This document shows positions 44,298-61,581 of a stretch of 61,817 nt of DNA, in pieces. The translations under genes and the position numbers were made by a program. Position 1 is the stretch's first letter. Every line of letters begins with the position of its first letter. The stretch is from Clostridia bacterium (lineage in GTDB: Bacteria; Bacillota; Clostridia; Christensenellales; DTU072). The stretch is taken from assembly GCA_041654915.1 (NCBI GenBank), contig JBAZCO010000001.1:1-61817 (forward strand). The letters are read 5' to 3'. The notes beneath the pieces are model-generated. The model did not search any database. It had not been told where the DNA came from and was given only the letters and a program-made list of their open reading frames with translations.

Positions 44298-44861
44298 ATG
44301 AGCAAAAACAATTATCTGGCACAGCTTAGTGCCGCAAGGACAGGACAACAGCAGAAAAAACCGAACCTAGACAAGGCTATGGCCGACATCAGACAATACT
44401 CAGATTCTCTTAGTGGACTTAAGACCGAGGACTTGAACGAACTTAATGAGTTAATGGACAAGGTAGACGGGCTTGCGGATGTATTTTCAAAGTATGATAA
44501 GCTTTCAGGGAAAATTGAAGCTTTGCAGAAAAACGCAGCTTCCATTGAAGCCTCGCTCGGAGATTTAGCCGAGTTGCAAGATGAAACACAAGTAAATCCG
44601 TTTGAAGGTTACACGGAAGAACAGACCCTTGCTATCAATGTACAGCTTATCAAGGAATTTGAAGCCGAAAGCAGATTATCCAAGGACTTACTCAAGCTAT
44701 CGGAATCACAAATCTTAGAAGAAGAAGTGCCGGAAGAAGTGCCTGCGTTTGAAGGGCTAACAAAAGAGCAAACTGTACAGGTTTATATGCAAGTAATGGA
44801 TGAATTTGAAAATAAGACCGAACTTGCAAATAGGCTTGCATATAATGCGGAGGTGGAATAA
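44298..44861 (+). CDS. Acidic coiled-coil protein
   Basis: 187 aa, E/L/K-rich. Confidence 0.45.
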   Translation: MSKNNYLAQLSAARTGQQQKKPNLDKAMADIRQYSDSLSGLKTEDLNELNELMDKVDGLADVFSKYDKLSGKIEALQKNAASIEASLGDLAELQDETQVNPFEGYTEEQTLAINVQLIKEFEAESRLSKDLLKLSESQILEEEVPEEVPAFEGLTKEQTVQVYMQVMDEFENKTELANRLAYNAEVE

Positions 44862-45803: not shown

Positions 45804-45805
45804 GT

Positions 45806-46696: not shown

Positions 46697-47322
46697 GCAA
46701 CTTGCCAAAAGGATTAGACTATACAATTATAAAAACAGGCAGTTCGGGCAATGCTGTGTTGGTAAACGGTATATTATTTGACTGCGGTATAAGCTGGAAA
46801 ATGCTTGAGCCTTATGCCACGCAGGTTGATGTGGTTTTGACTTCACACAGGCACCAAGATCACATAAGGCACTCAACCTTAAACAAGCTAAAGAGTTTAT
46901 TCCCAAGGGTAGCTATAATCGCACCTAAGGACTTTTACAAGGGCACAGACAAGGCTCAGTATGAATTTGACGCTATATTGCCGCATAACAAGAAACTGCT
47001 GATTAAAGGCAAATATGAGGTCTTATGCACACCCATACCGCACAGCGTGCCTAATGTTGCGTTTGTGGTTAAGTTTCAAAGTGGCAAAACAGTTATGTAT
47101 GCGACTGATACGGTGAGTTTAGACCATTTGCATATCCCAGATCTTGATTTATATTTACTTGAAAGCAATTACAGTGAATTAAGCATAGTTAAGGATCAAA
47201 GGAATGCAATGATCGCGGTTACAACACATTTATCACAAGAGGCAAGTTTTGGTTGGTATTTAAGAAACAAGGGTGAAAACAGTGAATATGTGCCATTGCA
47301 TGCCCACATGGACTTCAAGTAA
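46693..47322 (+). CDS. Metallo-beta-lactamase-fold hydrolase (recombination exonuclease candidate)
   Basis: VVLTSHRHQDHIRH (HxHxDH). Confidence 0.75.
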   Translation: MSNLPKGLDYTIIKTGSSGNAVLVNGILFDCGISWKMLEPYATQVDVVLTSHRHQDHIRHSTLNKLKSLFPRVAIIAPKDFYKGTDKAQYEFDAILPHNKKLLIKGKYEVLCTPIPHSVPNVAFVVKFQSGKTVMYATDTVSLDHLHIPDLDLYLLESNYSELSIVKDQRNAMIAVTTHLSQEASFGWYLRNKGENSEYVPLHAHMDFK

Positions 47323-47348
47323 AGCATTTATAAACATTAAAAAGGAGA

Positions 47349-48137
47349 ATGAGGGTGATAGAAAAAGTAAATCCTGCTCACGTGGACAAAATCGCAGATA
47401 GGATAGCAGGAGCAATAGTAGATTTAGCATATATAACCCATTCTGACCCAAAAATAGCAGTAGAAGTTTTGATAGGGCATGACCATTGTCATGTAATAAT
47501 TGAAACAACCGCTTTAATAGGTTATGCAGCAGTAAGCGACATTGTTAAACGAATAGGCGGCGATGTAGAAGCCGATATAAAGATCTATGAACAAGACAAG
47601 CACCTGCAAGAAAACCAAGATGGAAAGATAAGGTGTGGTGATAACGGTATATTCAAGGGTGTGCCGCTGACAGATGAAGAAAAAGAATTATCACAAATTG
47701 CAAGGGATATTTACAAAAAATGGCCATATGATGGCAAGTATATACTTGACGGCGATCGCTTAATTATATGCCAAAGCAACGCAAAAACCGAAGATATAAG
47801 AAAACTATATCCTGATGCTGTAATCAACCCCTTGGGCGATTGGATAGGCGGAACTGGTGTTGATACAGGTGTTGGCGGAAGAAAATTAGGTAGCGATATG
47901 GCTCAAAGCGTAACTGGTGGAAACATACACTCGAAAGACCTTTCCAAAGCTGATGTATCAGTCAATATCTATGCATTCCTCAAAGCACAGCAAACAGGTG
48001 AAGTTGTAGAATTAAGTTGTGCTATAGGCGATGAATATGTTGACGGCATACCTTATGGTGAAATTGTAGAAATAGCAAGAGAATTTATTAACAGGCTTGG
48101 TGGATTTGAAAAGTTTGCCGAGTGGGGATTGTTTTAA
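47349..48137 (+). CDS. metK: Miniaturised S-adenosylmethionine synthetase (MetK-like)
   Basis: HVDKIADRIAGAIVD (cf. HPDKI.DQISDA.LD). CGDNGIFKG (cf. GAGDQGLMFG). INPLGDWIGGTGVDTGVGGRK (cf. NPTGRF.IGGP.GD.GLTGRK). TGGNIHSKDLSKADVS (cf. GGGAFSGKD.TKVDRS). 262 aa. Confidence 0.7.
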   Translation: MRVIEKVNPAHVDKIADRIAGAIVDLAYITHSDPKIAVEVLIGHDHCHVIIETTALIGYAAVSDIVKRIGGDVEADIKIYEQDKHLQENQDGKIRCGDNGIFKGVPLTDEEKELSQIARDIYKKWPYDGKYILDGDRLIICQSNAKTEDIRKLYPDAVINPLGDWIGGTGVDTGVGGRKLGSDMAQSVTGGNIHSKDLSKADVSVNIYAFLKAQQTGEVVELSCAIGDEYVDGIPYGEIVEIAREFINRLGGFEKFAEWGLF

Positions 48138-48164
48138 CACAAAAAAAGAAAAGGAGAAAAAATT

Positions 48165-48740
48165 ATGTTTGACAGCAAAAAAGACTATGGCGGGGGTGGG
48201 TATCTCCGCAAAGAAGGGGATTTTTTCTTAAAAATCCTTTCATGGGAATATGATGATGCGTATTTTCCCAAGTATAAGGTTGACGCAGAAGTTGTGTCCG
48301 GGCCGAACGAAGGAGAGTTTGTGCAGGGCACAATCACAAAGCCGACTGAAAAATATATGAACGACAATGATCGTGCCTTAGGCGGTTTTTCTTTCTCGCA
48401 AGTCGGTGCGTATGTAGTCGGTGCCGGAATCACAGACAAAGTAAATGCTTTAGAGAAAATCACGGTCGGTGCCATAGGCAAAATGATTGTCGGTAAAATA
48501 ATAAAGGCACGTGTTCAACTTACAAGGAAAAGTCAACAGGCAAAAGAGGATGGCGAAACAACCGGGCTTTACTATGAAGTAGGCAGAATATATAAATATT
48601 CCGATTGGATTAACGAAGAAGTAAGTTCTTATGAAACTGCAGACCCAGTACCGCCGCCTGATATAGACTACAGCCATGACATGGTTTCACCGTTTGATTT
48701 AGGCAATGATGATGACCACGGTGGTGAGCTTCCATTTTAA
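48165..48740 (+). CDS. Non-canonical ssDNA-binding protein candidate with an SSB-type acidic tip
   Basis: C-terminus NDDDHGGELPF (cf. the DDDIPF tip of bacterial SSB). Sits in the recombination module. Confidence 0.5.
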   Translation: MFDSKKDYGGGGYLRKEGDFFLKILSWEYDDAYFPKYKVDAEVVSGPNEGEFVQGTITKPTEKYMNDNDRALGGFSFSQVGAYVVGAGITDKVNALEKITVGAIGKMIVGKIIKARVQLTRKSQQAKEDGETTGLYYEVGRIYKYSDWINEEVSSYETADPVPPPDIDYSHDMVSPFDLGNDDDHGGELPF

Positions 48741-48760
48741 TTTAACTTAAACTTACGGCT

Positions 48761-48803
48761 ACCGCTATCACTGATATGAACGATTAACATTAGTGATAGC
48801 GGT
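48761..48803. promoter_or_regulatory. 12-bp inverted repeat (hairpin/operator) followed by TATAAT
   Basis: ACCGCTATCACT-19 nt-AGTGATAGCGGT, then tataat. Confidence 0.6.
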
Positions 48804-48825
48804 TATAATAAACAAAGGAAAAAAA

Positions 48826-49215
48826 ATGACTTGGCAACAATTTCAACAGTGGGTATGCAAAGAATTATCTGAGCATGGCTTTTGGGCATATGAAACTATA
48901 AACAAACCATCGGGTCAGCCGGTAGATATAATCGCAGCTAAGAATAATGTTACATATATCATTGAATGCAAGGTAACAAAAAGTGATAGATTCCCATTAA
49001 GCCGTGTAGAGGACAACCAAATAATGGCTATAGAAAAATTTAGCAGGTGCGGTAATACACAAAGTTGGTTTGCTTTTTATTTTAGAAAACACCCTGACAG
49101 CGTTTTATTTGTCAGAGCAAACATGATATTAGACTTGATTGACAGTGGAGCAAAAAGCACGACTTATGAAGAGCTGAAAGATATGAGTGAGCTGCTGCTA
49201 GAAAAAGAGCAATAA
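48826..49215 (+). CDS. Holliday-junction resolvase-like PD-(D/E)xK nuclease
   Basis: ..GQPVDIIAAKNNVTYIIECKV.. (D...E.K). Start moved to ATG 48826, downstream of the hairpin. Confidence 0.55.
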   Translation: MTWQQFQQWVCKELSEHGFWAYETINKPSGQPVDIIAAKNNVTYIIECKVTKSDRFPLSRVEDNQIMAIEKFSRCGNTQSWFAFYFRKHPDSVLFVRANMILDLIDSGAKSTTYEELKDMSELLLEKEQ

Positions 49216-49259
49216 TTGATTGATTGTTTTGAATTGCAGGCAGTCGAAGGAGCAAGTAA

Positions 49260-49640
49260 ATGAGAAAGATTAAATTCAGGGGGAAGACATTAGACGGTAG
49301 ATGGATATACGGCGACCTTTGGCACCGACCTTACGCAAAAGACTGCGTTACCATAGTCAGCTTTATGGAAGATACAGGAACAACAGGAGGTCTTGAGGTA
49401 ATCCCTGAAACCGTTGGACAGTACACTGGCTTAAAAGATAAGAACGGTATTGAGATTTACGAGGGTGATATAGTGCTCTGTAAAATACACGATAAAGAGT
49501 ATATGGGCCTAGTTGAGTATACAAATACATACGGATTTTACTATCTTTCTGGGATGGGACGTTCTGATACTGAGTTATGGGGTTGTAACGAAAAAAAAGT
49601 CATCGGCAACATCTACGAAAACCCTGAACTAATGGTTTAG
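49260..49640 (+). CDS. yopX: YopX family protein
   Basis: MRKIKFRGK...GRWIYGDL...TVGQYTGLKDKNGIEIYEGDIV...VIGNIYENPELM. Confidence 0.85.
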   Translation: MRKIKFRGKTLDGRWIYGDLWHRPYAKDCVTIVSFMEDTGTTGGLEVIPETVGQYTGLKDKNGIEIYEGDIVLCKIHDKEYMGLVEYTNTYGFYYLSGMGRSDTELWGCNEKKVIGNIYENPELMV

Positions 49641-49644
49641 ACTA

Positions 49645-49827
49645 ATGATTGAGGCAGCGGAGATGAAAAAAATAACAGTTAAGCACATAGCGGAAAAATA
49701 TATCTGCGAGACGTGCTCAAAGCTGGAGCAGCTTAAAGATAAAGTCAGGGAAAGCGGCGAAACACAGTGGTGCATGTGCACTTGCAGTCATGCGCAGGCT
49801 TGGCCGGTAAAGGAGGATTGTGAATGA
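49645..49827 (+). CDS. Small Cys-rich protein
   Basis: 60 aa. CETC...CMCTC. Confidence 0.4.
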   Translation: MIEAAEMKKITVKHIAEKYICETCSKLEQLKDKVRESGETQWCMCTCSHAQAWPVKEDCE

Positions 49828-49888
49828 TTATTCAACTCGGCACCTGGTATGTGGAGGACGATATGAACAAGGAAAGGGAGATGATAAA

Positions 49889-50104
49889 ATGAAACTAAGT
49901 GAATACATCAGCCGCATGAGAGAAATCCAAGAAGATATGTTCGACGGCGGGAAGCCAAGTGTTGAAGAGCTGATAGAACTAAGCCATCCTCAAGGTCTGG
50001 ACTTGCACTTGCTAACCGAGCAAGAGCTAGAAGTGATGATTGTAGGAATTAACAATGGGCTAGACACAATGGAAAAGGCGTATCTATATTTTGATGACGA
50101 GTGA
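49889..50104 (+). CDS. Small protein, paralogue of 51027-51239
   Basis: MKLSEYISRMREIQEDMFDGGKP vs MKLSEYISRMRAIRDDMYDGGKT. GGGAG SD before ATG 49889. Confidence 0.5.
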   Translation: MKLSEYISRMREIQEDMFDGGKPSVEELIELSHPQGLDLHLLTEQELEVMIVGINNGLDTMEKAYLYFDDE

Positions 50105-50714
50105 TAATAAACAACGAAGGCGAGATAGAAAAGTGAAGGTATTGAGTGGTAGCAGTTTAGCTGGTGGTACGCCAACAAGGGGTAGAGTAAAGGACGATTA
50201 TTACGCAACGCCACCTCAATCAACACAAGCGCTGTTAGATGTATTGGAACTAAACGGTTCGATGTTAGAGCCGGCTTGTGGAGAAGGTCATATAAGCGAA
50301 GTGTTAAAAAAGAATTATCCATGTAGCGAGATTGTATCAACCGACTTAGTCGATAGAGGGTATGGAGTTGGTGGAATTGATTTTTTAGAAAAAGAATACG
50401 ATAGAACGTTCGATAACGTGATAACTAACCCACCTTTTAAGTACATGCGGGAGTTTGTTGAGAAGTCTTTAGAGATTTCAACAGATAAAGTAATAATGTT
50501 CGGGAAAATACAATTTTTAGAAGGGCAAAGGCGAAAAGAGTTCCTTGAAAACTCACCATTAAAATACGTGTACGTGTTCAGCGAACGTCAAAACCCGATG
50601 AGAAATGGTAGTCCTGTTGATGGAAATGGCAAGAAATGGTCATCCACAATGTGTTTCGCATGGTATGTGTGGGAACAAGGTTATCAAGGAGAGCCGATAA
50701 TTAGGTGGCTATAA
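50091..50714 (+). CDS. N6-adenine DNA methyltransferase
   Basis: YYATP, LEPACGEGHI (motif I), VITNPPF (motif IV). Confidence 0.85.
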   Translation: MMTSDNKQRRRDRKVKVLSGSSLAGGTPTRGRVKDDYYATPPQSTQALLDVLELNGSMLEPACGEGHISEVLKKNYPCSEIVSTDLVDRGYGVGGIDFLEKEYDRTFDNVITNPPFKYMREFVEKSLEISTDKVIMFGKIQFLEGQRRKEFLENSPLKYVYVFSERQNPMRNGSPVDGNGKKWSSTMCFAWYVWEQGYQGEPIIRWL

Positions 50715-50756
50715 GAGGAGTGAGAAGTTGATAAACAAAGAAAGCGAGATGGAAAA

Positions 50757-50999
50757 ATGAGCGTTACAACATGGATATTTGATCCGGAGGAAGTAAAGGC
50801 AGCCATAGGGCTGTATATGGTAGAAGTGCGAGGAGTGTCGCTGGATGACATACGGAGCATTGAGTTTTTAATAATTGACGGGGAACAAGGCTCCGAGTTT
50901 GATGGGGTACAAGTAAGTTTTGATGATCCAGGGGATGTGGAATTTGTTGACGCCGACGACCAAACAGGCGGAACTGAACGGAAACAGAGGGAGGAATAA
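50757..50999 (+). CDS. Acidic hypothetical protein
   Basis: 80-aa ORF. Confidence 0.4.
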   Translation: MSVTTWIFDPEEVKAAIGLYMVEVRGVSLDDIRSIEFLIIDGEQGSEFDGVQVSFDDPGDVEFVDADDQTGGTERKQREE

Positions 51000-51026
51000 C
51001 TATGAAATGGAAGGAGTGCTAGGGAG

Positions 51027-51239
51027 ATGAAGTTGAGTGAATATATCAGCCGTATGCGGGCAATCCGAGACGATATGTATGACGGAGGGAAAACGATGCT
51101 GAAATGTTGTATGTGCGGCGATGTGTTTGATATTGGCTATGAAATGCCGAACGGTGATTATGTTTGTGCCACACACGAGTGTTGCTATGAATATTGCAAA
51201 TGTGAGGGGAAAAGAATAACTCAAGAAAGCGAGGACTGA
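51027..51239 (+). CDS. Small Cys-rich protein, paralogue of 49889-50104
   Basis: The shared N-terminal 23 aa are ~79% identical at the DNA level. Confidence 0.5.
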   Translation: MKLSEYISRMRAIRDDMYDGGKTMLKCCMCGDVFDIGYEMPNGDYVCATHECCYEYCKCEGKRITQESED

Positions 51240-51244
51240 GTGAT

Positions 51245-51523
51245 ATGAACAATGAAAAGGAAATAAAAGACAAACTTTTGAAGTTATTTGAAGAAATAGA
51301 CCGACAATCAGATGAACAGGAGATGTATATCCAAGAGTTGAGACAAAGATTATCTCTTGCTGAAAAAGTCTGCTATGAGGCTAACGGTTATCTAAAAAGC
51401 AAAGACAATCCGCTTGGCAGGATTTATTTAGACAGACTGGCTGAGGCAATTGAGAAGTGGGACAGCAGTAGGAAAAATAAGGGTGCTCAATATCTTGTGA
51501 TGGAGGATTGGGAACAATGCTGA
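51245..51523 (+). CDS. Hypothetical coiled-coil protein
   Basis: 92-aa ORF. Confidence 0.4.
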   Translation: MNNEKEIKDKLLKLFEEIDRQSDEQEMYIQELRQRLSLAEKVCYEANGYLKSKDNPLGRIYLDRLAEAIEKWDSSRKNKGAQYLVMEDWEQC

Positions 51524-51590
51524 GTTTAGAACGATTGCAAAATATACAAAAACAAATAACCATAACCGATTGGTTAGGAGATTCTATATA

Positions 51591-52952
51591 ATGCACGCAG
51601 TTTTCGGAGCAGAGATAACTTTATATAACCCTACACTTAAAGTTGTAGCTTGGTGTAGAGCTAATCTATGGGTAAACAACCCTGAATATACTGCAAGGGT
51701 ACGTATGAACAAGTGGTTAGGCAACACACCACGAAAACTCATGCTGTACAAGCGAGTTGACGGTAATCTGATACTGCCGGCAGGACTTAGGGGCAAGTTT
51801 AACAAGATACCGTTCACAGAAAGCTATCCACAGATAAAGCGTTGGCAACCACAAGAACCGAAAAGCTATGAACCGTATAGCTATCAAGTGCTTGCTGCTA
51901 ATGATATGTTTGAGTCGAAACACGGCGGAATAGTGTTAGCGAGCGCGGGTAGTGGCAAGACTTCGATAGCACTCCATGCAATCGGCAGCTTAGGTGTAAA
52001 GACATTGTGGATAGCAGACACACTTGATTTGATAAACCAAGCAAAGAATAGGTTTATACAGTTTTATGGAAAACAAGGTGTAGGCGTAACCACGGGCGGT
52101 AAGATAGACATAGGCGAACGCATAACCTTCGCCACGCTCCAAACGCTTGCCAAGATACCGATTGAGAATTATGCCAACGAATGGGAATGTGTTATTGTTG
52201 ATGAAGTGCAGATAGTTTCAGGCAGTCCTACAAAGATAACTATGTCTCAAGCTGTACTGTCTAAGTTAAACGCAAGATTAAAGTATGGTTTAACCGCAAC
52301 TTATCATAGATCTGATGGCCTAGAAAAGTGTATATGGGCATTGATAGGCGACATTATACATGAGGTGCCTGAAAGCGCCACAGAAAAAACCACAATGATA
52401 CCTACAGTTCGCAGGATAGATACAAGCCTTATGCCATCGGAAGAATACCTTGATACCGACGGCACGCTTATGTGGGCAAAATTGATTAACTATATAGCTT
52501 TAGATGAAGATAGAAATAGGCAAATAGCCTATGATATAGAAAAGGCCGGCAAAAGCATTTTAGTTTTATCCGACAGAAAGGCACAGCTTGATATGTTGTA
52601 TGATTTTTTGACCGATAAACGTTTTGCAAAGATTATTACAGGCAGCACTCCAAGAAAAAAAAGAGAACAAGGCATACAGGATATGCGAGACGGGAAATTG
52701 CGAATAATGCTATCTACATTTGCCATGTCAAAGAAAGGTTTAGATATACCAAGGCTTGATACCTTGGTTTTAGCTTCACCCAATAAGGATTATGCGTTAA
52801 TAACCCAAGCCGTCGGTCGCTGCCAACGCATATTTAAGGGTAAGACCCAAGCCTTGGTTTTAGACTATGTAGATAGCAACATCAGATATTTAGATAGAAT
52901 GTACAAAAAAAGAGTTACATCTTATAATAAACTTAGAGCGAGGTATGAATAA
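51591..52952 (+). CDS. Superfamily-2 DEAD/DEAH-box helicase
   Basis: ASAGSGKTS (Walker A), VIVDEVQ (motif II), TAT (motif III), QAVGRCQR (motif VI). Confidence 0.85.
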   Translation: MHAVFGAEITLYNPTLKVVAWCRANLWVNNPEYTARVRMNKWLGNTPRKLMLYKRVDGNLILPAGLRGKFNKIPFTESYPQIKRWQPQEPKSYEPYSYQVLAANDMFESKHGGIVLASAGSGKTSIALHAIGSLGVKTLWIADTLDLINQAKNRFIQFYGKQGVGVTTGGKIDIGERITFATLQTLAKIPIENYANEWECVIVDEVQIVSGSPTKITMSQAVLSKLNARLKYGLTATYHRSDGLEKCIWALIGDIIHEVPESATEKTTMIPTVRRIDTSLMPSEEYLDTDGTLMWAKLINYIALDEDRNRQIAYDIEKAGKSILVLSDRKAQLDMLYDFLTDKRFAKIITGSTPRKKREQGIQDMRDGKLRIMLSTFAMSKKGLDIPRLDTLVLASPNKDYALITQAVGRCQRIFKGKTQALVLDYVDSNIRYLDRMYKKRVTSYNKLRARYE

Positions 52953-53157
52953 AATGAAAGAAACAACTAAATATAACCAAATGCTTACAGCCTTTTATTG
53001 TGATTTTGCTTTAGCTAAAGATGAACGTATGAGATTAGGTGATTTAGATGATTTAATTAAAAAATCGGATGAAAGACTGCTCAAAGATATAAAGCTATTA
53101 GAAGAATTAGATTTTAACTTAAGGCACGGAAAAATAAAAATCGTAGAGGTGGACTAA
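52945..53157 (+). CDS. Hypothetical protein
   Basis: 70-aa ORF overlapping the helicase stop. Confidence 0.4.
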   Translation: MNKMKETTKYNQMLTAFYCDFALAKDERMRLGDLDDLIKKSDERLLKDIKLLEELDFNLRHGKIKIVEVD

Positions 53158-53325
53158 GTGAAAAAACCAACCGTTAGGCAATGCAAGCTAATAGAAAAAA
53201 GATTAGGTTTAGATCCTACTAAATATCTTGTCAGGAGATGGAATCCGGTTAAAGACGGTAAAATAGAAGTTTGCCTTGTAAGCAGGAAAACAGGGGAGAA
53301 AGTATGGAAAACGATAATAACATGA
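53158..53325 (+). CDS. Small basic protein (55 aa, GTG start)
   Basis: GAGGTGG SD. VKKPTVRQCKLIEKRLGLDPTKYLVRRWNPVKDGKIEVCLVSRKTGEKVWKTIIT. Confidence 0.4.
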   Translation: MKKPTVRQCKLIEKRLGLDPTKYLVRRWNPVKDGKIEVCLVSRKTGEKVWKTIIT

Positions 53326-53477
53326 TTTGCAAGTCAGTGTCAGAAAACCAACGCGGCAATATATGGCTGTCTAATCATTTGGGTAGCATAACAACAAGGG
53401 GGGGGGAAGCCAGGGCAAGGCTATCCTTGCATACTGTCTTTTCAGCCAAGGCTGCAGTCAATGGATATACAATATGA
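53304..53477 (+). CDS. N-terminal variable-region fragment of the permuted C5-MTase (out of frame with the main ORF at G9)
   Basis: MENDNNMICKSVSENQRGNIWLSNHLGSITTRGG.. with a GGGGAG SD. With 8 or 11 G it would read into KPGQGYPCILSF..MDIQYEH. Confidence 0.55.
   Translation: MENDNNMICKSVSENQRGNIWLSNHLGSITTRGGEARARLSLHTVFSAKAAVNGYTI
53398..53406 (+). repeat. G9 homopolymer
   Basis: acaacaa + 9 G + aagcc. Confidence 0.95.
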
Positions 53478-54987
53478 ACATATTGGCACACTATGTACAA
53501 CAGATTATAAAGGAGAGAGGTGTTTACTTGCAATGGAACCTATAAATTACGCGATTGACAGCATGTCATCTAACAGCATGAAATCAAGCAATCCGCACAG
53601 CGGAATACACAAGGAGAACTATGTGAAAACAATAGATACGAATGGCAATAACCCTGCTTGCAACCAAGGGGGAAATATGATTGTTTATGCTTTATCAAGC
53701 CCATGTAAAGGAGAAAGTGGGGGTTTAACGTACATGCCAATGAAGCTACGTGTAAGAAAAATTACAGAAAGAGAGTGTTTGCGTCTTATGGGGTTGCCGG
53801 ACGATTGGTTTGATGGTGCAGATTTGCCAAAAACAAGACAGTACCAAATAATTGGAAACGGACTTGTAACAGGTAAAGATTCCTATTTTTGGTATATGTG
53901 GCAAAACATCTATAAGCTACTGAACAAGAAAAGACCAACAGTTTTCTCACAATTCAGCGGTACAGGCATGACAGAATATATAACGGATGAATTAGGTTTT
54001 TTTACAGTTTATGCAAGCGAAATAGACGAATCTGCAAATAAAGCTCATGCCAACCTGCAAAGAAAAGGCATACTTGATAGAAGAACTCGAAACCTAGGTG
54101 ATATCACGAAGGTAAGTGGATATAAAATCAGACCTTGTGATGTAATTTTCTCTTCAAGCCCTTGTCAAAGTTTTAGTCATGCAGGGAAAGGCGAGGGGGA
54201 GGATGGTGAAAGCGGCTTGATATGGGAAACCATAAGGACTGCAAGGGAAATGCTTGAGGCTACAAACGGTAGATATCCAAGCGTAATAGCAACAGAAAAT
54301 GTTGCAGGTGAGCTTTCGCACAAACACTTTTTAACTAAGTTTCTTATTGCGCTTGACAGGATGGGCTATGCCATTGACATTCAACTTCACAATGCACTTG
54401 ATTATAACGTAGCACAATCAAGGGAAAGAGTTGCAATTGTAGCAATAAAAAAAGAGTTGGTTGACGGGAACAGCTTTGAGGAGCATAGGCATAACAGGGT
54501 GCAAAGGGTCTTGAAGAAAACAAATGCAGATATACAGCTTTTTTCTGGCATAGCAACCTTCCCGCACGAGCCCAAAAAAAGCAACTTAATCGACTTTATA
54601 GATGATAATGTAGACGAAGAATATGACCTATCCGAAAGGGCATGTATGGGAATATTGCGCAGGGCATATCAAAGGGAAAAAGAAATCCCGGCTATTCTTG
54701 CATATGCGCTTATGGTGCAAAGCGGCGATTTGTACTATGAAAGTGAATATGACAGCAAGCACGGGAAGGTAGATGGCAATAAACTTAGGGAATGGTATGC
54801 AGATATTATTGATAAAGGTTTTGAGAAAGTTGAACTGCCTGTGTGCCTTGAAAATCATGGTACAGATAGCAGGATCAAGATAAAGGAAAATGAAACACCA
54901 ACTGTAACTTCAAGATGGGGAACAGGTGGCAATAATATGGCACTGGTGCTAGATGTCATAAATGACACTGGGGGGGGTATAACGTGA
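53461..54987 (+). CDS. Circularly permuted DNA (cytosine-5) methyltransferase, main ORF
   Basis: Order: IX RKITERECLRLMGLPDDW, X QYQIIGNGLV, I FSQFSGTG, II ASEIDESA, IV SSSPCQSFSHAGK, VI IATENVAG, VIII QSRERVAIVA, then a variable C-terminus ending ..DTGGG. Confidence 0.8.
   Translation: MDIQYEHIGTLCTTDYKGERCLLAMEPINYAIDSMSSNSMKSSNPHSGIHKENYVKTIDTNGNNPACNQGGNMIVYALSSPCKGESGGLTYMPMKLRVRKITERECLRLMGLPDDWFDGADLPKTRQYQIIGNGLVTGKDSYFWYMWQNIYKLLNKKRPTVFSQFSGTGMTEYITDELGFFTVYASEIDESANKAHANLQRKGILDRRTRNLGDITKVSGYKIRPCDVIFSSSPCQSFSHAGKGEGEDGESGLIWETIRTAREMLEATNGRYPSVIATENVAGELSHKHFLTKFLIALDRMGYAIDIQLHNALDYNVAQSRERVAIVAIKKELVDGNSFEEHRHNRVQRVLKKTNADIQLFSGIATFPHEPKKSNLIDFIDDNVDEEYDLSERACMGILRRAYQREKEIPAILAYALMVQSGDLYYESEYDSKHGKVDGNKLREWYADIIDKGFEKVELPVCLENHGTDSRIKIKENETPTVTSRWGTGGNNMALVLDVINDTGGGIT
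54970..54977 (+). repeat. G8 homopolymer
   Basis: gacact + 8 G + tataacg. Confidence 0.95.
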
Positions 54988-55187
54988 CGCACAACAGAAC
55001 AGGTACACTGCGGTCGGCTTGTCAGTCTGTATTTTTAGTTGAAGCTTCGCCACAAGATAAAAAGAAGACTCGTTGCTTTAGTGGTGATTTTGCTGCAAGA
55101 AAAGAGTCTGAACATTATCCAACCATAACAGGCAACCATGCAAAAGTAAGTGCTGATTTGCTGATCATCCTAGAGGAAAAAGAATGA
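54984..55187 (+). CDS. Possible C-terminal extension of the permuted C5-MTase (joined if the tract is G9)
   Basis: The frame is continuous with the MTase after a +1 G. Contains ..NRTGTLRSA.. and ..YPTITGNH... Its stop overlaps ATG 55184. Confidence 0.4.
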   Translation: MTHNRTGTLRSACQSVFLVEASPQDKKKTRCFSGDFAARKESEHYPTITGNHAKVSADLLIILEEKE

Positions 55188-55819
55188 AAATATTAGAACT
55201 GTTTGCAGGAACAAGGTCAATAGGCAAAGCATTTGAACAGAATGGACATAAAGTCTTTTCTGTTGATTGGAGCAAGGATTTTGAAAATATTGACTTATAC
55301 GCAGATATTCTTGCCTTAACTCGTGATGATATCATCAATAAGTTTGGCTATCCGGATGTAATCTGGGCAAGCCCTGACTGCACAACCTATAGTGTTGCAG
55401 CAATTAGTCATCATAGGCGACGCGAAGAAAGTGGAAATTTAGCTCCAATTTCTGAATATGCCAAGTTTTGCGATGAAGTAAATAAGCATGTACTTTATTT
55501 AATCGAATCCCTTTCTCCTAGATTTTGGTTTATTGAAAATCCACGGGGGGGGCTAAGAAAGATGGACTTTATGAAAGATTTGCCTAGATATACAGTTACG
55601 TATTGTCGGTATGGAGATACAAGAATGAAGCCTACGGATATCTGGACAAATCATCCAAACCCAAAATTTAAGCCTATGTGTAAAAATGGTGATCCTTGTC
55701 ATATTGCTGCACCACGTGGCTCAAGAACTGGCACGCAAGGAATAAAGGGAAGCATCAAGCGATCTATAATTCCAAATGAATTATGCCAACATATTGCAAG
55801 CATATGTGAAGAAAGGTGA
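55184..55819 (+). CDS. Small C5-MTase-like methyltransferase with an internal G8 run (in frame)
   Basis: I ILELFAGTRSIG. IV-like IWASPDCTTYSVAA (Cys retained, PDC instead of PC). VI FIENPRGG (the GG is coded by the G8 run). 211 aa. Confidence 0.7.
   Translation: MKILELFAGTRSIGKAFEQNGHKVFSVDWSKDFENIDLYADILALTRDDIINKFGYPDVIWASPDCTTYSVAAISHHRRREESGNLAPISEYAKFCDEVNKHVLYLIESLSPRFWFIENPRGGLRKMDFMKDLPRYTVTYCRYGDTRMKPTDIWTNHPNPKFKPMCKNGDPCHIAAPRGSRTGTQGIKGSIKRSIIPNELCQHIASICEER
55545..55552 (+). repeat. G8 homopolymer
   Basis: ccac + 8 G + ctaag. Confidence 0.95.
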
Positions 55820-55885
55820 ATAACATGAATAAACATGCTATACTAAAATTATCTCGTGTGCCATGTGTGCAAGGAGTCTCTGATT

Positions 55886-55919
55886 ACGCACCTTCAGTTG
55901 GGGTGCGTTTTCTGTTTTT
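55886..55919 (+). terminator. Rho-independent terminator after the MTase cluster
   Basis: acgcacc-9 nt-ggtgcgt followed by tttctgttttt. Confidence 0.7.
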
Positions 55920-55935
55920 ATAAACCTTAGTCAGG

Positions 55936-55944
55936 TGATATAAT
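55936..55944 (+). promoter_or_regulatory. Extended -10 promoter element upstream of the endolysin
   Basis: TGATATAAT. No good -35. Confidence 0.4.
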
Positions 55945-55979
55945 CAAAGAAAGAAGCACAAGCAAAGGAGGAAAACGAA

Positions 55980-57320
55980 ATGAAAATTATTCCAAACAAA
56001 TACCCTGAAGAAAAGAACTGGCAGAAGTGGCTGAAGTTTAACACTGGCAAAGAGGTCAATGTTGTCTTTTTGCACCGCACCGCAGCCTATATCCGTGACC
56101 ACCACAAAAAACAAGCAGTAATCGCATCAGGCAATAGAACTATGAAACAGCAACAAGACTTGTACGATTTATATAAGGCAGGTAAGGGTAATAAGGCAGC
56201 TGTTCCCGGCAAGAGCAGGCATAACTTCGGCTTAGCCATAGACTTTAATAATATAGGCACAAAAAACGGTGTTAAACAATATCCCGGAACACTTAATTCA
56301 GACTATGCCTTGTGGGTATCCAAAAAAGCAGAAGTGTTAAATCAATATGGGTTAAGGCACGCAGTCGACGGCGAAATTTGGCACATAGAGCCGATAGAAA
56401 CGGCTGGAGTATCTATAGATGATATTGCAAATTTTTTAGATGAGGATGATTTATTTAATACACCGTCTGGATATCCAAGGTTAGAGTTAACCAGCCCTTT
56501 AACCCGTGGAACATTTGTAGGTTTATTACAAAAATGGCTCAAGATTAAAGTTGATAAAGCATTTGGCAAAGACACCGATAAAGCAATCAAAGACTACCAA
56601 AAAGTAAAAGGGCTTACTGTTGACGGTATAGTTTGGACTGATACATGGAACGCATTAAAGGCTGACAACGCACCTAAAAAAACAGACTTAGAAATTTGCC
56701 AGGACAAAGTCAAGGGTTTAGAAAAGCAGATAACCGCATTGCAAGACACAATAAAGAAAAACGATACAACCATAAAAAACCTAAATGCTGATAAGACAAG
56801 CTTAGAAGGGCAAGTTACAACAGAAAAAGCTAAGGTAATTACCCTTGAAAAAGAAATAAAGGCTGTGCAAGACACAAATGCGGGCTTAATTATACATAGG
56901 GATAGTTTAAAAAACGAATTAACGGCAACACAAAAAGAATTAGTTGCGGCCAAAAATGAAGCAATACAATTAGAAACAGAAAAGAACCAGGCACAGAACT
57001 GGTCGGAAGTTTTACAAGAAAAAATAGTTACACTGGAAACAAAGATAGAAGATAAAGACGGGCAGTTGACGGAAGAGAAAGACAGAAACACGGAATATGT
57101 TAAATCTATTATCCATTTAGAGGCTTTAATATCCGAGAAGGAAAGAGATTTAGAATATGCCGAAGAAAGTTTACACGCATGTGAAACAGAAATTAAAATA
57201 CTGAACGACAAAATAGAAGAATTAAGTAATAAAAAGCCTTGCGAAGAAATTGATATTAATAAATACTCCATAGCCGAATTATTGAAATTGATCATAGATA
57301 AAATTTTTAGGAGAGGTTAA
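55980..57320 (+). CDS. Endolysin: M15 (VanY-like) peptidase + PG_binding_1 + long C-terminal coiled coil
   Basis: SGNRT..Q..L, PGKSRHNFGLAIDF, EIWHIEP (H-x6-D...H). FVGLLQKWL..AIKDYQKVKGLTVDGIVWTDTW. Then ~215 aa of heptad-rich sequence. Confidence 0.8.
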   Translation: MKIIPNKYPEEKNWQKWLKFNTGKEVNVVFLHRTAAYIRDHHKKQAVIASGNRTMKQQQDLYDLYKAGKGNKAAVPGKSRHNFGLAIDFNNIGTKNGVKQYPGTLNSDYALWVSKKAEVLNQYGLRHAVDGEIWHIEPIETAGVSIDDIANFLDEDDLFNTPSGYPRLELTSPLTRGTFVGLLQKWLKIKVDKAFGKDTDKAIKDYQKVKGLTVDGIVWTDTWNALKADNAPKKTDLEICQDKVKGLEKQITALQDTIKKNDTTIKNLNADKTSLEGQVTTEKAKVITLEKEIKAVQDTNAGLIIHRDSLKNELTATQKELVAAKNEAIQLETEKNQAQNWSEVLQEKIVTLETKIEDKDGQLTEEKDRNTEYVKSIIHLEALISEKERDLEYAEESLHACETEIKILNDKIEELSNKKPCEEIDINKYSIAELLKLIIDKIFRRG

Positions 57321-57322
57321 GA

Positions 57323-57706
57323 ATGGAAAAATCTTTTAAAGAATGCCCTATATGCGAATGTCCGTTTAAGTTTTGCCAATGTATCTTCTCAGGCTCTACA
57401 CACCCCGACAGGCATTTACAGACAGAGGTGGTGGAGCAGCATTTATATTTACTAAATAAAAAGCAAATAAAGCATTTAATGTATTTACAAAAATATTGGC
57501 GAATATCTTATTCCGACAAAGAGAGAAAGCAAATATATCTCAAGCTAATCAGGAAAGCAAGGTTCAATAACAGCCGTAGATTTAGGCTTTTATTTCCCCT
57601 GTTTCGTGTTACGGTTCAACATGAAAACTTAGACTTTTTAACGAATTTAATCGTAAAATTAGGCGGCAAGAAAAATCATGCTAATTTCTATGATTTACCA
57701 TATTGA
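57323..57706 (+). CDS. Hypothetical protein with a Cys-rich N-terminus
   Basis: CPICECPFKFCQC. 127 aa. Confidence 0.4.
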   Translation: MEKSFKECPICECPFKFCQCIFSGSTHPDRHLQTEVVEQHLYLLNKKQIKHLMYLQKYWRISYSDKERKQIYLKLIRKARFNNSRRFRLLFPLFRVTVQHENLDFLTNLIVKLGGKKNHANFYDLPY

Positions 57707-57732
57707 CAAGGTAAAGTATTAGGTGCTACAAT
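57703..57732 (+). promoter_or_regulatory. Promoter P5 (TTGACAAGG family)
   Basis: TTGACA-18 nt-TACAAT. Confidence 0.6.
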
Positions 57733-57755
57733 AATACAAGAGGTGAGAATATCAG

Positions 57756-57962
57756 ATGAAAACTTATGAAAAAGACGGGGTAAAATATATAACGCACAGG
57801 GATGCACTAAAGTATTATGAGTGTACGCCTACCACTTTGCTTAATTGGCGAGAAAGCGGTCGAATAAAGATTTATAAATTACCTCTTGATAGCGGGCATT
57901 TATATGCAGTAGATCCGATTTTAAGAAAATACCATATAGGGGGTGAAAGGTTTGACAGATAG
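57756..57962 (+). CDS. Helix-turn-helix (excisionase/MerR-like) DNA-binding protein
   Basis: YITHRDALKYYECTPTTLLNWRESGRIKIYKL. Confidence 0.45.
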   Translation: MKTYEKDGVKYITHRDALKYYECTPTTLLNWRESGRIKIYKLPLDSGHLYAVDPILRKYHIGGERFDR

Positions 57963-58416
57963 GGAAAAAGCAACAATAGAAGAAAGCAGATACTTGATTT
58001 ACAGTGTGTTTAACAACGGCGATGTAACCAAGGCTTCTGTTAAAGACCCTGACAATGAAAGACCCTTACCGAGATACAAAGACGGTGGCGGTGTATATGT
58101 TTGGGTCGGCAAGAAAAAGCTATATGTAAAGCGTTTGGTTGCAAAGCATTTTATGAACGAAGTCGGTGATAGAGTAGAGTGCATAGACGGTAACGAAGAT
58201 AATTGCTCCGTGGTAAATTTGCGTATAGGTAAGCGTGATTATAGTAGTGATAGAAAGATATATACCAAGGTTTCGGTTGACGGTGTTGTCTATGATTCCA
58301 TCTCTGCTGCGGAGCGTGCTTTAATGGTATCTCACGGTTATCTAACAAGATATTTTAACGGCCAAAGAAGTGGTAAAATCTTAGAAGGACACAAAATTAA
58401 AATAATAAAGGAGTGA
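57943..58416 (+). CDS. Degenerate HNH_3/NUMOD-type homing-endonuclease-like protein
   Basis: VKRLVAKHFMN...VECIDGNEDNCSVVNLR (the usual His is replaced by Cys). C-terminal VSVDGVVYDSISAAERAL is a NUMOD1-like motif. Non-ATG start. Confidence 0.45.
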   Translation: MKGLTDREKATIEESRYLIYSVFNNGDVTKASVKDPDNERPLPRYKDGGGVYVWVGKKKLYVKRLVAKHFMNEVGDRVECIDGNEDNCSVVNLRIGKRDYSSDRKIYTKVSVDGVVYDSISAAERALMVSHGYLTRYFNGQRSGKILEGHKIKIIKE

Positions 58417-58422
58417 GTGGAT

Positions 58423-58809
58423 ATGAGTAGTGTGGTAGACATAGCCTTATTGCGTGGCAATGACGAGAAAATAAATGTGACCATGAAAGATGCCGATGGT
58501 GGGGCTATTATTATGACTGGCGGTGACGAACTGTACTTTACGGTGAAAAAAGCGGCGTTGGGCTGTGAAGAGATCGAGGATGGTTTGATTTTTCAAAAAT
58601 CTTTATCCAAGGGCATTGAAAACAATAATGACGGTACATATACCGTAAACATTGCTGCTGTTGATACCGATGATTTAAAGGGCTTGTTTGCTTATGATTT
58701 AAAGTGTGTATTTGCTTTGGGTAATGACGAATATTTTCGCAAGACCGCTTTGATGGGTATGATCGATTTTCGTGACACAAGGACACGCATAGATGAAGAA
58801 GGAGAATAG
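58423..58809 (+). CDS. BppU-N-like / Ig-like tail fibre-associated protein (tentative)
   Basis: ..INVTMKDADGGAIIMTGGDELYFTVKK..GTYTVNIAAVDTDDL..YDLK... ATG 58423 has an AAGGAG SD. Confidence 0.4.
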   Translation: MSSVVDIALLRGNDEKINVTMKDADGGAIIMTGGDELYFTVKKAALGCEEIEDGLIFQKSLSKGIENNNDGTYTVNIAAVDTDDLKGLFAYDLKCVFALGNDEYFRKTALMGMIDFRDTRTRIDEEGE

Positions 58810-58811
58810 TT

Positions 58812-58997
58812 ATGAGTAAAGATATATTTGTTACGCTTGATGTAGAGGGTGGTATTAGTGCAAGTGCCGAGCCGGGTGTGTTACAAGGCCCACAAGGTGA
58901 CAAGTGGATGAAAGCCATGACACAAAGCGAATATGACGGTTTAGCTGAAGTTGACCCCGAAATTTATTATATAGTTACACCAGACGAGGTAGGATAA
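58812..58997 (+). CDS. Short fibre-associated protein with a collagen-like GPQG string
   Basis: ..GVLQGPQGDKWMKAMTQSEYDGL..EIYYIV, a pattern common at tail-fibre N-termini. Confidence 0.4.
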   Translation: MSKDIFVTLDVEGGISASAEPGVLQGPQGDKWMKAMTQSEYDGLAEVDPEIYYIVTPDEVG

Positions 58998-59483
58998 ATG
59001 GCTATATATAATAAAAACAAAAAAGCAAAATTTTATAAAGGTTTCTATAAGCCTGTAAACTGGTATCACCGTGGCCATAAAGTGGCTGGTTGGGAAGAAG
59101 GTATCAAGTCTGGTGAGAGTATTTTGTTTGAAGATACCTACGATGATTTTATGGATATCGAAATGTCGGGCAAGAGCGAACAGGTGCAGACAGTACAAGG
59201 GAAGAATTTTGTTGATATTTCTGGCGAACTTTTTAAAGTTACCATAGGATATGCACCTGGTTCAGCAGAAAGTAAAGCTATATTTGCTGACAACAGTGTT
59301 GTGGTCGGTATGTCTCGGAATGCATTTATGAATATAAATGTCAATCTAATATATAGAAACCCCACAACAGGATATGTAAAATACTCGTCAAATTTTGCAT
59401 GGTATGGTGTCGGTTTTAAAGTGTACTTAAAGCCCAGTACAAATTACATAAAAAATTTTACAGGCGATGGTTACGCTGGGTAG
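58998..59483 (+). CDS. Tail fibre protein, 5' part (frame ends at TAG 59481)
   Basis: ..MSGKSEQVQTVQGKNFVD... The -1 frame is open from 59420 and continues into 59552-60265. Confidence 0.55.
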   Translation: MAIYNKNKKAKFYKGFYKPVNWYHRGHKVAGWEEGIKSGESILFEDTYDDFMDIEMSGKSEQVQTVQGKNFVDISGELFKVTIGYAPGSAESKAIFADNSVVVGMSRNAFMNINVNLIYRNPTTGYVKYSSNFAWYGVGFKVYLKPSTNYIKNFTGDGYAG

Positions 59484-59551
59484 GCTTTTTTGAGGCGGAC
59501 GGCACTTTTATATCGGATGCTATTTCTAACTCTTTTACCACACCCTCTAAT

Positions 59552-60265
59552 ATGGCTTTTGCGTTTATAGTTATAGCACCATCAACCGCTACTAGTGGGG
59601 TGCAATTAGTACAAGAAGTTACAGGTTTGCAAGTAGAGTTAGGCTCAACCGCAACTGCCTTTGAGCCGTTTACTCCCGACAGTCCTTCACCAAATTATCC
59701 ATCGCTTGTTAACAGTGCTGGCAAAAAATTACTTGTAAATAGTAACGAAGTAATTATCCCTACCCTACACAAAATCGGTGACGTAGCTGATGAGTGGAAC
59801 AGCAAAACAGGTGAAATCACAAGGCGGATTGGTGTTAAAGTTTTTGACGGAACGGAAGCCACAACACTATACACTTATAATGATTTAAATGGGGTTTATT
59901 TTGCGAGCATTTTACCAGAAAACCAATTAAGAGGGCCTGGCTTTTGCACGCATGAAAGTAGGGTGGGCAACTATGGCAGTTCATCTGGAACTTATATGTG
60001 GGTTGGTGCAAATAATAGAGATGTTTTTTGGATAGGTATTTGTGATTACCTTAATAAACCAACCGTGGGCGAAATACAAGACTGGCTTGCAGACCAGTAT
60101 AACAACGGAACGCCAGTGACGCTTTACTATCAACTATCAACACCAGTCATAGAGCAAGTAGCGACCAAAGTACCGTCATATCCAAAAATAACGGAGATAG
60201 TACAAGATAACAACATAAAAACAGATATAACAGCGACAGCAAAAATAGTGGATTTGGGGGAGTAA
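59552..60265 (+). CDS. Tail fibre protein, 3' part (no SD at ATG 59552; probably a continuation of 58998-59483)
   Basis: ..LQVELGSTATAFEPFTPDSPSPNYPS... The upstream same-frame sequence VGFFEADGTFISDAISNSFTTPSN is protein-like. Confidence 0.55.
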   Translation: MAFAFIVIAPSTATSGVQLVQEVTGLQVELGSTATAFEPFTPDSPSPNYPSLVNSAGKKLLVNSNEVIIPTLHKIGDVADEWNSKTGEITRRIGVKVFDGTEATTLYTYNDLNGVYFASILPENQLRGPGFCTHESRVGNYGSSSGTYMWVGANNRDVFWIGICDYLNKPTVGEIQDWLADQYNNGTPVTLYYQLSTPVIEQVATKVPSYPKITEIVQDNNIKTDITATAKIVDLGE

Positions 60266-60271
60266 GGCACG

Positions 60272-60451
60272 ATGACTTGCAGGTGCAGAAAAAAGCTCAA
60301 AACAGATAACAACGGTGAAGAAGTTTCTGTCAGTATAAATAAAGGCACAATGCTTATAGAAAACAAAGACATTGAAACCTATGTAGAGATAAAATATTGC
60401 CCGAATTGCGGGAAGAAAATAAAGTACAAGAAACGTAAAGGAGAAAACTAA
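60272..60451 (+). CDS. Small zinc-ribbon protein (59 aa)
   Basis: MTCRC...YCPNCGKK. The next gene's ATG (60454) lies 2 nt after its stop. Confidence 0.4.
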   Translation: MTCRCRKKLKTDNNGEEVSVSINKGTMLIENKDIETYVEIKYCPNCGKKIKYKKRKGEN

Positions 60452-60453
60452 AA

Positions 60454-61581
60454 ATGAGAATCGAAACCATACGAATAGGGGATTTAGCACTAAACGAAAA
60501 GAACATCAGGACAAATTTAAATGTAGATGATCTGATAGACAGCATACAAGAAAGTGGTGTACTTGTACCGCTTATTGTTACACCAGATTACACCGTAGTT
60601 GACGGCAACCGTAGATTAGAAGCCGCAAGGCGAGTGTTCGGCGAAGATGCTTTAATAACGGTAGATATAAGAAACCTGTCAGAACAAGAAATTATTGAAT
60701 ATTCACTCATAACTGCACTGCAAAGAGAAAATCTAACCGAAAAGGAAAAGGCAAACGCATATAAGCAGTTAAGCATTCTAGGGTTAAGTGATTTTACCAT
60801 AGCAAAGAAAATAGGTAAAAAGAAAACAAATGTTAATGCTTACATTAAGGCAGCGGACATAGAGCAAGAATTATGGGAAACACACACCTTAGATGAGCTG
60901 CAATTTATAGCCGAGTACCCTGAACTTGCAAATTACACAGGCAGAGCCTTAATCGACAGATACGATAGGCTTGTTGCACAAGAGAAGTTTAACAACTGGC
61001 TAAATGATTTTTCATATCCTGAAAACACAAGCCAATCCATAGCCGACAAATGGTATGAAAACGAAGATTACGGCTTTGACGGGCTTGCAATTAAGAGTGA
61101 TAACAAGCTTTATCATAACGGCGAAGTTATAGCCGAGGATTATCACACCTATCCATATGCACCAAATACCCTTATACACGCTGTTTCTAATGAACTATGG
61201 ATAATTGAGCCTAAAGAGCAAGAAAGTGCCACAGAAGCCGAAAATGAACCACAGGAGGCACTTAAACTAATAGATGAAAGTGATATATACGAGGGTTACT
61301 TGGAAGTTTGGGGCGGAATTGTAGAGCGAGTCAAACGAAAGGTAGAAGAAGTAAGGGTAAGAAAAGAGCCGGCATTATCACTTGTTGGTATTATATGCAA
61401 GACCTACGGCTTTGATGATCTAAAGGATATGGCCTTAGATTCGTTTGAAACGCTTGCTATCGAACCGTTCTTCATGCGTGATGGAAAGATAGAGCATAGG
61501 GAGTGTGAATGCTTAGATTTTATCAATGCAATGACCACTTTAAGCGATGCAGAAAGGGTAGTAATCAGTGGCAAACAGTAA
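60454..61581 (+). CDS. parB: ParB/Srx-domain protein
   Basis: IRIGDLALNEKNIR, GVLVPLIV, VVDGNRRLEAARR (the GxRR box), and an HTH-like FTIAKKIGKKKTNVNAYI. Confidence 0.8.
   Translation: MRIETIRIGDLALNEKNIRTNLNVDDLIDSIQESGVLVPLIVTPDYTVVDGNRRLEAARRVFGEDALITVDIRNLSEQEIIEYSLITALQRENLTEKEKANAYKQLSILGLSDFTIAKKIGKKKTNVNAYIKAADIEQELWETHTLDELQFIAEYPELANYTGRALIDRYDRLVAQEKFNNWLNDFSYPENTSQSIADKWYENEDYGFDGLAIKSDNKLYHNGEVIAEDYHTYPYAPNTLIHAVSNELWIIEPKEQESATEAENEPQEALKLIDESDIYEGYLEVWGGIVERVKRKVEEVRVRKEPALSLVGIICKTYGFDDLKDMALDSFETLAIEPFFMRDGKIEHRECECLDFINAMTTLSDAERVVISGKQ

Follow-up and report, generated by a model that had tools for sequence, protein, structure and literature searches.

The window analysed here, the whole 61,817-nt contig JBAZCO010000001.1 (positions 1 to 61,817, assembly GCA_041654915.1), is a complete phage-like genome of ~61.7 kb with 40% G+C and a 140-nt overlap between its ends. 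Positions 53304-55187 form one gene for a circularly permuted cytosine-5 (C5) DNA methyltransferase, the catalytic core of which (motifs IX and X, a linker, then motifs I to VIII) is intact. Poly-G tracts lie at both variable ends of this enzyme, and by the balance of the evidence set out below we somewhat favour the view that they would act as evolved hypermutable switches, which add or remove end modules of the permuted enzyme. By this means the phage probably varies its own DNA methylation pattern at random.

The open reading frame (ORF) of 508 aa present in the assembly is a cytosine-5 DNA methyltransferase according to Pfam (PF00145, E 1.6e-42), with the match falling into two stretches. 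Motif IX (residues 99-116) and motif X (127-136) come first and are followed by a 25-aa linker, after which motifs I (162-169), II (185-192), IV with the PCQ cysteine (231-243), VI (276-283) and VIII (319-328) are arranged in the usual succession (Table 1). The best matches among solved structures are M.HaeIII and M.HhaI. Alignment to M.HaeIII (PDB 1dct) shows the circular permutation directly, because residues 161-333 of the query pair with residues 3-165 and residues 98-135 with residues 272-308, so that the two stretches stand in swapped order. A preliminary description of this DNA, made from the letters, had proposed a single permuted enzyme with one copy of each motif, and domain match, structural alignment and motif positions all bear this out. 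Two fused enzymes or a domain-swapped dimer were also considered and dropped as the primary reading, since there is a single copy of each motif and two relatives (P0003 and P0004) retain the X-to-I linker; the permuted enzyme may form a dimer.

Among 1.8 billion representative proteins the X-to-I junction is common to only three other lineages. The closest, P0002, is 86% identical, stems from a Clostridiaceae bin (contig L001), was seen again as L084 and L164, and carries one additional module, ALQGN..YTINTVDRH. The other two are P0003 (52% identical, contig L002) and P0004 (43% identical, contig L083). The order of the motif ring is kept in the alignments of P0002, P0003 and the rotated P0004; the last aligns end to end after rotation, has the same ring including the X-to-I linker, and is cut between motifs II and III. 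A search for further close relatives in IMG/VR, JGI metagenomes and GTDB genomes brought up only the L001/L084/L164 lineage as new, no GenBank phage covered at least 80% of the ORF, and a helicase-based search for sister phages found none. The best phage matches include the multispecific enzymes of the Bacillus phages SPR, phi3T, rho11s and H2, classical members of this type, with 30-35% identity over the core.

The arrangement of P0004 represents a second natural permutation, in which the ORF opens shortly ahead of motif III/IV ('KHYGDI..GSPCQ') and closes behind X-linker-I-II. Among the ~130-kb IMG/VR phage loci that were inspected, several show it too (L003, L026, L027, L043 and L059, at ~nt 5990-7500). 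In a survey from 2018, natural C5 permutations were located only in the variable region (PMC5944983).

The nearest relatives of ordinary motif order (P0121-P0128, P0005 and P0008; 600-770 aa) contain a string of short modules between motifs VIII and IX, and the regions flanking the core of the window enzyme are built from the same modules. Three of them, a, b and c, precede motif IX, and module d lies beyond the post-VIII region, followed by a 67-aa add-on. The enzyme thus has tandem short modules related to those of other enzymes, and judged by its sequence it is a phage multi-module ('multispecific'-type) C5-methyltransferase with the chain break inside the module array. The label of an M.BssHII-type enzyme, which the preliminary description had given, holds for the permuted order, as motif X precedes motif I in one chain with single motif copies. 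It does not hold in its plain form, since the cut falls inside the module array and modules are found at both ends. For the same reason the enzyme differs from type H, in which the whole recognition domain is N-terminal (PMC5944983): its termini lie in the variable region, with modules on both sides. A related multi-module C5-methyltransferase of 930 aa (P0064, contig L231) contains the intein domains PF14890 and PF13403.

At the N-terminal side, an upstream ORF of 57 aa starts at ATG 53304. Its 5' part, module a, corresponds to a conserved module, ..ENQRxEV.L....TGGGKPGQGYPC[IV]L, which at least six other enzymes carry within their arrays, with matches in the variable regions of P0064 (58% over 33 aa), P0031, P0133, P0177, P0202 and P0256. 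In P0002/L001, and also in L084 and L164, this N-terminal add-on and the main ORF form one continuous frame, in which the homologous tract reads C+G10. Together with a codon usage within the in-frame range, the conserved module and the in-frame fusion in a relative confirm the coding status claimed earlier, and they identify the N add-on as a real recognition module. When tract lengths were simulated, with G8 or G11 the upstream ORF ran on into the main frame to give 560-561 aa, G9 ended the upstream ORF at 53475-53477, and G7 or G10 placed the stop at ~53543. The position of the G9 tract and the fusion with 8 or 11 G were thereby reproduced. The assertion that the main frame could start only at M53461 had to be given up, as a second in-frame ATG exists at 53533, preceded by GAGGTG, and is the one used by the gene callers, yielding a product of 484 aa (P0001). 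Each of the out-of-frame upstream ORFs terminates 10-14 nt beyond one of these in-frame ATGs (53461 or 53533), and restart translation at either site is therefore possible when the N tract is out of frame.

At the C-terminal side, the same simulation reproduced the position of the G8 tract and the gain of 67 aa with 9 G, ending at TGA 55185-55187; with G7, G8, G10 or G11 a stop follows 1-2 codons past the tract. By our own estimate an open frame of 67 codons has a chance of ~1% at 40% G+C, and the codon-usage score of this add-on (0.110) lies inside the in-frame range and above every off-frame window. We therefore take the C add-on as coding, and both add-ons behave as coding sequence, as had been suggested. 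The preliminary description had further pointed to strings resembling target-recognition regions (T-L-x-x-GG or PT-I-T) in both add-ons. For the N add-on these go along with true module similarity; for the C add-on they do not. In a BLAST search of 120 related enzymes the latter had no match below E 0.1, and against the profile of the common 'KIRSGCEGGGKGAL..TL..' module, which is alike by eye, it scored -2.2 bits, no better than shuffles.

The tracts stand out from the composition of the genome. Runs of G occur with lengths of 1 to 6 and then of 8, 8, 9 and 12, there is no run of C longer than 6, and only ~0.15-0.22 runs of eight or more G are expected; GGG is the rarest glycine codon of the genome (12%). 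All four distinct runs of at least seven G sit in three of the four DNA methyltransferase genes, which make up 6.0% of the genome, and the probability that four of four fall there by chance is ~1.3e-5 by our own arithmetic. The view that the tracts are real and non-random is thus upheld by run-length distribution and expected counts. Each of the four (G9, both G8 and G12) is a repeat inside an ORF that sets the reading frame; three are out of frame, and the ~2.9 kb of flanking reading frame contain no other stop or indel.

Besides the two tracts of the permuted enzyme, one G8 tract lies in a small C5-methyltransferase-like gene directly downstream, and a G12 tract interrupts an adenine methyltransferase gene, leaving an ORF of 82 aa (61568..139 across the circle) and one of 96 aa (136-426, MISNPPFSG..). 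With G10 or G13 at this position the two would be fused. The identity of the gene is indicated by PF13651 (E 6.5e-7) and phrog_799 (E 3e-11). In L169, L170 and over 100 proteins with lengths of 165-220 aa, the sequence that aligns to the fused frame is one undivided ORF. In L169 and L170, the two relatives inspected at the G12 site, no poly-glycine is present there.

Comparison with relatives allows insights into the origin of the tracts. All 58 IMG/VR relatives alignable at the ENPRGG site of the small methyltransferase (51-76% identity) keep an ENP.GG-type motif, ENPRGG in nearly all, and encode it by interrupted codons, the G runs of which reach 4 at most. In L228, which at 84% identity is closest to this gene, the very same position holds G6 and is frameshifted, and the N terminus looks decayed as well. 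Likewise, the GGG of module a and that of a 'KIRSGCEGGG' module are written with mixed codons elsewhere; in the two enzymes whose DNA was checked, the former is encoded as GGCGGAGGG (P0064) and GGTGGTGGG (P0031). Since relatives encode the same glycines with mixed codons, the tracts are derived and specific to this lineage.

The tract lengths also differ between relatives. The N tract has G9 in the window versus G10 in the L001 lineage. In the ~130-kb IMG/VR phages, which are an independent set, a poly-G tract on the GGG of a 'KIRSGCAGGGKGAL' recognition module (nt 6550; L068: nt 625) varies between matching flanks: G8 in L052, G9 in L055, G10 in L061 and G7 in L058, L062, L066, L068 and L072, with only G8 in frame. 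The same loci show no length change in A and T runs of 6-7 between matched flanks. A positional homology of the C tract with this G7-G10 tract was considered and dropped, as the C add-on has neither a homologue nor a module-profile match. A G8 frameshift was further found in L136 (nt 590-597), between motifs VI and VIII of a multi-module C5-methyltransferase. The ORF of L136 extends from 'GDITK' to beyond motif X, and with no motifs I-II visible on the 2.2-kb contig it may belong to a split enzyme.

If the tracts are switches, they would shorten or lengthen through slipped-strand mispairing as the phage DNA replicates. A C tract of G9 would attach the 67-aa add-on, and in the other phases the protein would end after module d with the enzyme complete. 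An N tract of G8 or G11 would let the protein begin with module a at the strong ATG 53304; the other phases would give a short upstream ORF, and the enzyme, if made, would arise via the weaker restart at ATG 53461 or 53533. The G12 tract would be an ON/OFF switch of the adenine methyltransferase, OFF as assembled, and the G8 tract one of the small C5-methyltransferase, ON as assembled. Isoforms of the permuted enzyme would differ in their target set, since in multispecific phage enzymes several recognition sequences stem from tandem modules (PMC8936443). In consequence, a phage population would carry mixed methylation patterns, and we infer that the benefit would be bet-hedging between hosts with restriction enzymes that are blocked by methylation and hosts with Type IV enzymes that attack methylated DNA.

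A frameshift in an array of ordinary order, or of the P0004 type, removes motifs IX and X and kills the enzyme; under the permutation, what is otherwise an ON/OFF switch would become one of specificity. It is a tentative idea, which we hold to be rather doubtful, that the position of the permutation inside the module array is what makes the design work. It would provide four enzyme forms with nested target sets and, combined with the two ON/OFF methyltransferases, up to 16 methylation states from one phage genotype, a combinatorial 'methylome lottery'.

Several observations weigh against hypermutable switches. No tract variation was seen within this phage, for which we have three identical assemblies, probably from one and the same sample, and a longer or fused variant of this protein was not found among about 15 billion proteins. 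The C add-on found no match but itself among 5.8 billion protein clusters, and its function as a recognition module is a candidate role drawn from its pattern. As the start sites in the out-of-frame state are weak, the N tract may be a plain ON/OFF or low-expression switch. The gene of the ~130-kb phages may be inactive, given the break in its motif IV described below, and its G7-G10 tract may be drifting. Structure prediction is confident in the catalytic core alone and uninformative on the end modules and on the packing of IX-X: AlphaFold gave a pLDDT of 45.6 for the 508-aa enzyme with 3 sequences, and with 87 sequences 85-98 for the core and below 50 for residues 1-135 and 456-508. Finally, to our knowledge poly-G mutability is undocumented for this host group.

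Among the alternatives, decay by repeated knock-out fares best, and we consider it unlikely. In this scenario methylation would be costly in the current host, for example due to Type IV restriction, and the genes would have been inactivated, with homopolymers frameshifting first and the lesions becoming fixed. The three out-of-frame tracts and the lack of variant alleles of this phage would fit, as would the decayed-looking L228 with its G6 frameshift and an A6 frameshift in L001 (2496-2501), where the window has A7 (54574-54580). A further break that would fit is found in ~30 phage contigs (L052-L082, ~nt 5985-6005), in which the methyltransferase frame is broken inside motif IV (TGT TAG C CAA), so that the catalytic Cys codon is followed by an in-frame TAG and then by QDLSIAG in the +1 frame; it may reflect programmed shifting, recoding or a fixed knock-out. 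Decay leaves unexplained, however, that tracts of G8-G12 are confined to methyltransferase genes and that they are built of the rarest glycine codon where relatives use mixed codons. It is also at odds with the absence of a second lesion from ~2.9 kb of reading frame, with the coding-type codon usage kept by both add-ons and with the one tract that is still in frame.

Recoding without a change of the DNA, in which RNA polymerase slips or ribosomes shift frame at the G runs, would produce a fixed mixture of short and long proteins; we regard it as distinctly improbable. Long homopolymers support transcriptional slippage, and the G runs here count as long ones (G8-G12). The frames are tightly packed, as stops overlap the starts that follow (GTGA, ATGA). 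In L002, module d is immediately preceded by an A9 run (7226-7234; TTT AAA AAA AAA C), which is a slippery sequence of the classic type, and from there module d runs on to the contig end in another frame. However, slippage is better documented for A or T runs than for G runs, and the length differences between relatives (9 vs 10, 8 vs 6, 7-10) exist at the DNA level, with the in-frame state present in one relative. No stimulatory structure was seen, and none was searched for.

Homopolymer miscalls, with the frameshifts as sequencing or assembly errors in truly continuous genes (a 627-aa methyltransferase and a ~170-aa adenine methyltransferase), are very improbable: every break is at a homopolymer, G12 is hard to call and the fused frames match relatives, but the lengths agree in all three assemblies carrying this phage, which come from different pipelines and are identical over 6.5-7.5 kb, an agreement that speaks against an assembler artefact; moreover, A/T runs of similar length are stable across related contigs where the G tract varies, three independent errors in one short-read consensus are unlikely, and the placement of the tracts would be unexplained even if their lengths were wrong.

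Several known systems resemble parts of the proposed switch. Natural permuted C5-methyltransferases comprise M.BssHII, M.Alw26I, M2.Eco31I, M.Esp3I and M2.BsaI, and 27 of them were listed in REBASE in 2018 (PMC5944983). Like these, the window enzyme has motifs IX-X before I-VIII in a single chain and new termini in the variable region. M.BssHII-type enzymes, however, are members of restriction-modification systems and for the most part belong to type H, with the cut at the border of the variable region (PMC5944983), whereas the enzyme described here is an orphan with several modules, cut inside the array and flanked by poly-G at both ends.

According to PMC8936443 (citing Wilke 1988 and Sethmann 1999), tandem modules in multispecific phage enzymes give multiple recognition sequences. 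M.phiBssHII, reported as a multispecific phage enzyme, is counted among the close known systems. SPR-type enzymes share with the window enzyme that they are phage-borne and have tandem short modules beside a common catalytic core; in contrast, their motifs follow the canonical order I-X, and the stretch from VIII to IX holds all of the modules. We know of no repeat tracts in SPR-type enzymes.

With regard to switching by poly-G, hsdS of the Type I system NgoAV from Neisseria gonorrhoeae is changed in specificity by truncation or fusion (PMC9577141). There, too, a poly-G tract at the end of a specificity segment decides on the fusion of a further segment, and the NgoAV forms recognise different sequences. 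NgoAV is a bacterial Type I HsdS with two recognition domains that serves adenine methylation, whereas the window has a single-chain phage C5 enzyme with tracts at both ends and a putative effect on specificity. Phase-variable methyltransferases (phasevarions) include Type III mod, Type I and the Type IIG gene cj0031 (PMC7383803, PMC4889913). They likewise have a simple repeat inside the methyltransferase ORF, with ON and OFF phases both seen; in contrast to these bacterial chromosomal genes, which regulate host expression, here three methyltransferase genes of one phage are concerned, which likely protect phage DNA.

In Campylobacter phages, hypermutable poly-G tracts are reported in connection with phenotypic diversity and evasion of bacterial resistance (Sorensen 2021, Cell Rep 35:109214, cited in PMC12823448). 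The poly-G tracts in phage genes are the common element, but here they lie in methyltransferases and the phage is that of a Clostridia-type host. The Campylobacter phage tracts are reportedly located in receptor-binding genes. Literature searches and a review from 2026 revealed no phage in which methyltransferase genes are the specific home of hypermutable tracts. As far as searched, it is the combination of a permuted multi-module C5 enzyme, tracts in both of its end modules and the restriction of all long G tracts of a phage to methyltransferase genes that is new.

Table 1. Positions in the window of the permuted methyltransferase, its motifs, modules and tracts, and of the other methyltransferase features.
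Feature	Position	Strand	Remarks
Module a, 5' part of N add-on	53304..53397	+	ATG 53304 behind GGGGAG Shine-Dalgarno; reads MENDNNMICKSVSENQRGNIWLSNHLGSITT
N poly-G tract, G9	53398..53406	+	on conserved GGG of module a
Main ORF as assembled, 508 aa	53461..54987	+	ORF call, Pfam, M.HaeIII alignment, motif positions
Module b (..TLCTTDYKG..)	53482-53529	+	
Alternative in-frame start, Met25 (MEPINY..)	53533..53535	+	GAGGTG 10 nt upstream
Module c (SNSMKSSNPHSG..NPACNQGG)	53557-53691	+	matches modules in P0005, P0008, P0121-P0128
Motif IX	53755-53808	+	
Motif X	53839-53868	+	
X-to-I linker	53869-53943	+	
Motif I	53944-53967	+	
Motif II	54013-54036	+	
Motif IV (PCQ)	54151-54189	+	
Motif VI (ENV)	54286-54309	+	
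Motif VIII	54415-54444	+	
Conserved post-VIII region	54475-54726	+	
Module d (ENH..SRIK..TSRWGTGGNN)	54847-54954	+	matches modules in P0005, P0008, P0121-P0128
C poly-G tract, G8	54970..54977	+	at ..DTGGG, just beyond module d
C add-on, 67 codons	54984..55187	+	GTG start overlaps main ORF stop (GTGA); own stop overlaps next ATG (ATGA)
Small C5-methyltransferase-like gene, 211 aa	55184..55819	+	phrog_757; neighbour directly downstream
G8 tract coding RGG of ENPRGG (motif-VI-like)	55545-55552	+	in frame as assembled; CGG GGG GG
G12 tract	89..100 (= 61766-61777 in terminal overlap)	+	in EcoRI-like adenine methyltransferase gene
Fourth DNA methyltransferase gene (adenine type, NPPF)	50091..50714	+	phrog_799, E 2.6e-63; comparator without long G run

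In the genome the permuted methyltransferase is preceded by a helicase and small ORFs and followed by the small C5-methyltransferase-like gene and an endolysin-like gene. No partner restriction nuclease was found among the neighbours by domain matches, which is a weak test; the permuted enzyme is an orphan phage enzyme, and the host is a Firmicute (Clostridia-type). The overlap between the ends (1-140 and 61678-61817) indicates a circular or terminally redundant genome, and a contig with another cut point reads straight through the end junction. The right-hand copy of the overlap has 3 mismatches in its final 14 nt, and the differently cut contig L168 agrees with the left-hand copy. Near the fourth methyltransferase gene, an ORF at 47349-48137 gives a sub-threshold match to PF00438, the N-terminal domain of S-adenosylmethionine synthetase (31.4 bits vs a cut-off of 33.1). 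The genome further contains sets of repeats (covered by 30345-32845 and 7576-9087): three direct copies of 31 nt (30930-31022), four overlapping copies of 34 nt with 17-nt spacing (32287-32371), two copies of 63 nt at 30345 and 32783 with TTGACA..17 nt..TATAAT-like promoters, and internal tandem repeats of 231-243 nt and 42 nt in a minus-strand ORF of 1773 aa.

Phase-variable methyltransferases are known as bacterial regulators. If the switches proposed here are true, phages would hedge their own epigenetic coat against opposing host defences. The circular permutation of a methyltransferase would then have a functional rationale, as it would convert an ON/OFF switch into a specificity dial. 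The recognition modules offer a natural set of modular C5 recognition units, the targets of which could be read singly. For the annotation of phage genomes, this means that homopolymer frameshifts in methyltransferase genes should be neither corrected automatically nor labelled as pseudogenes.

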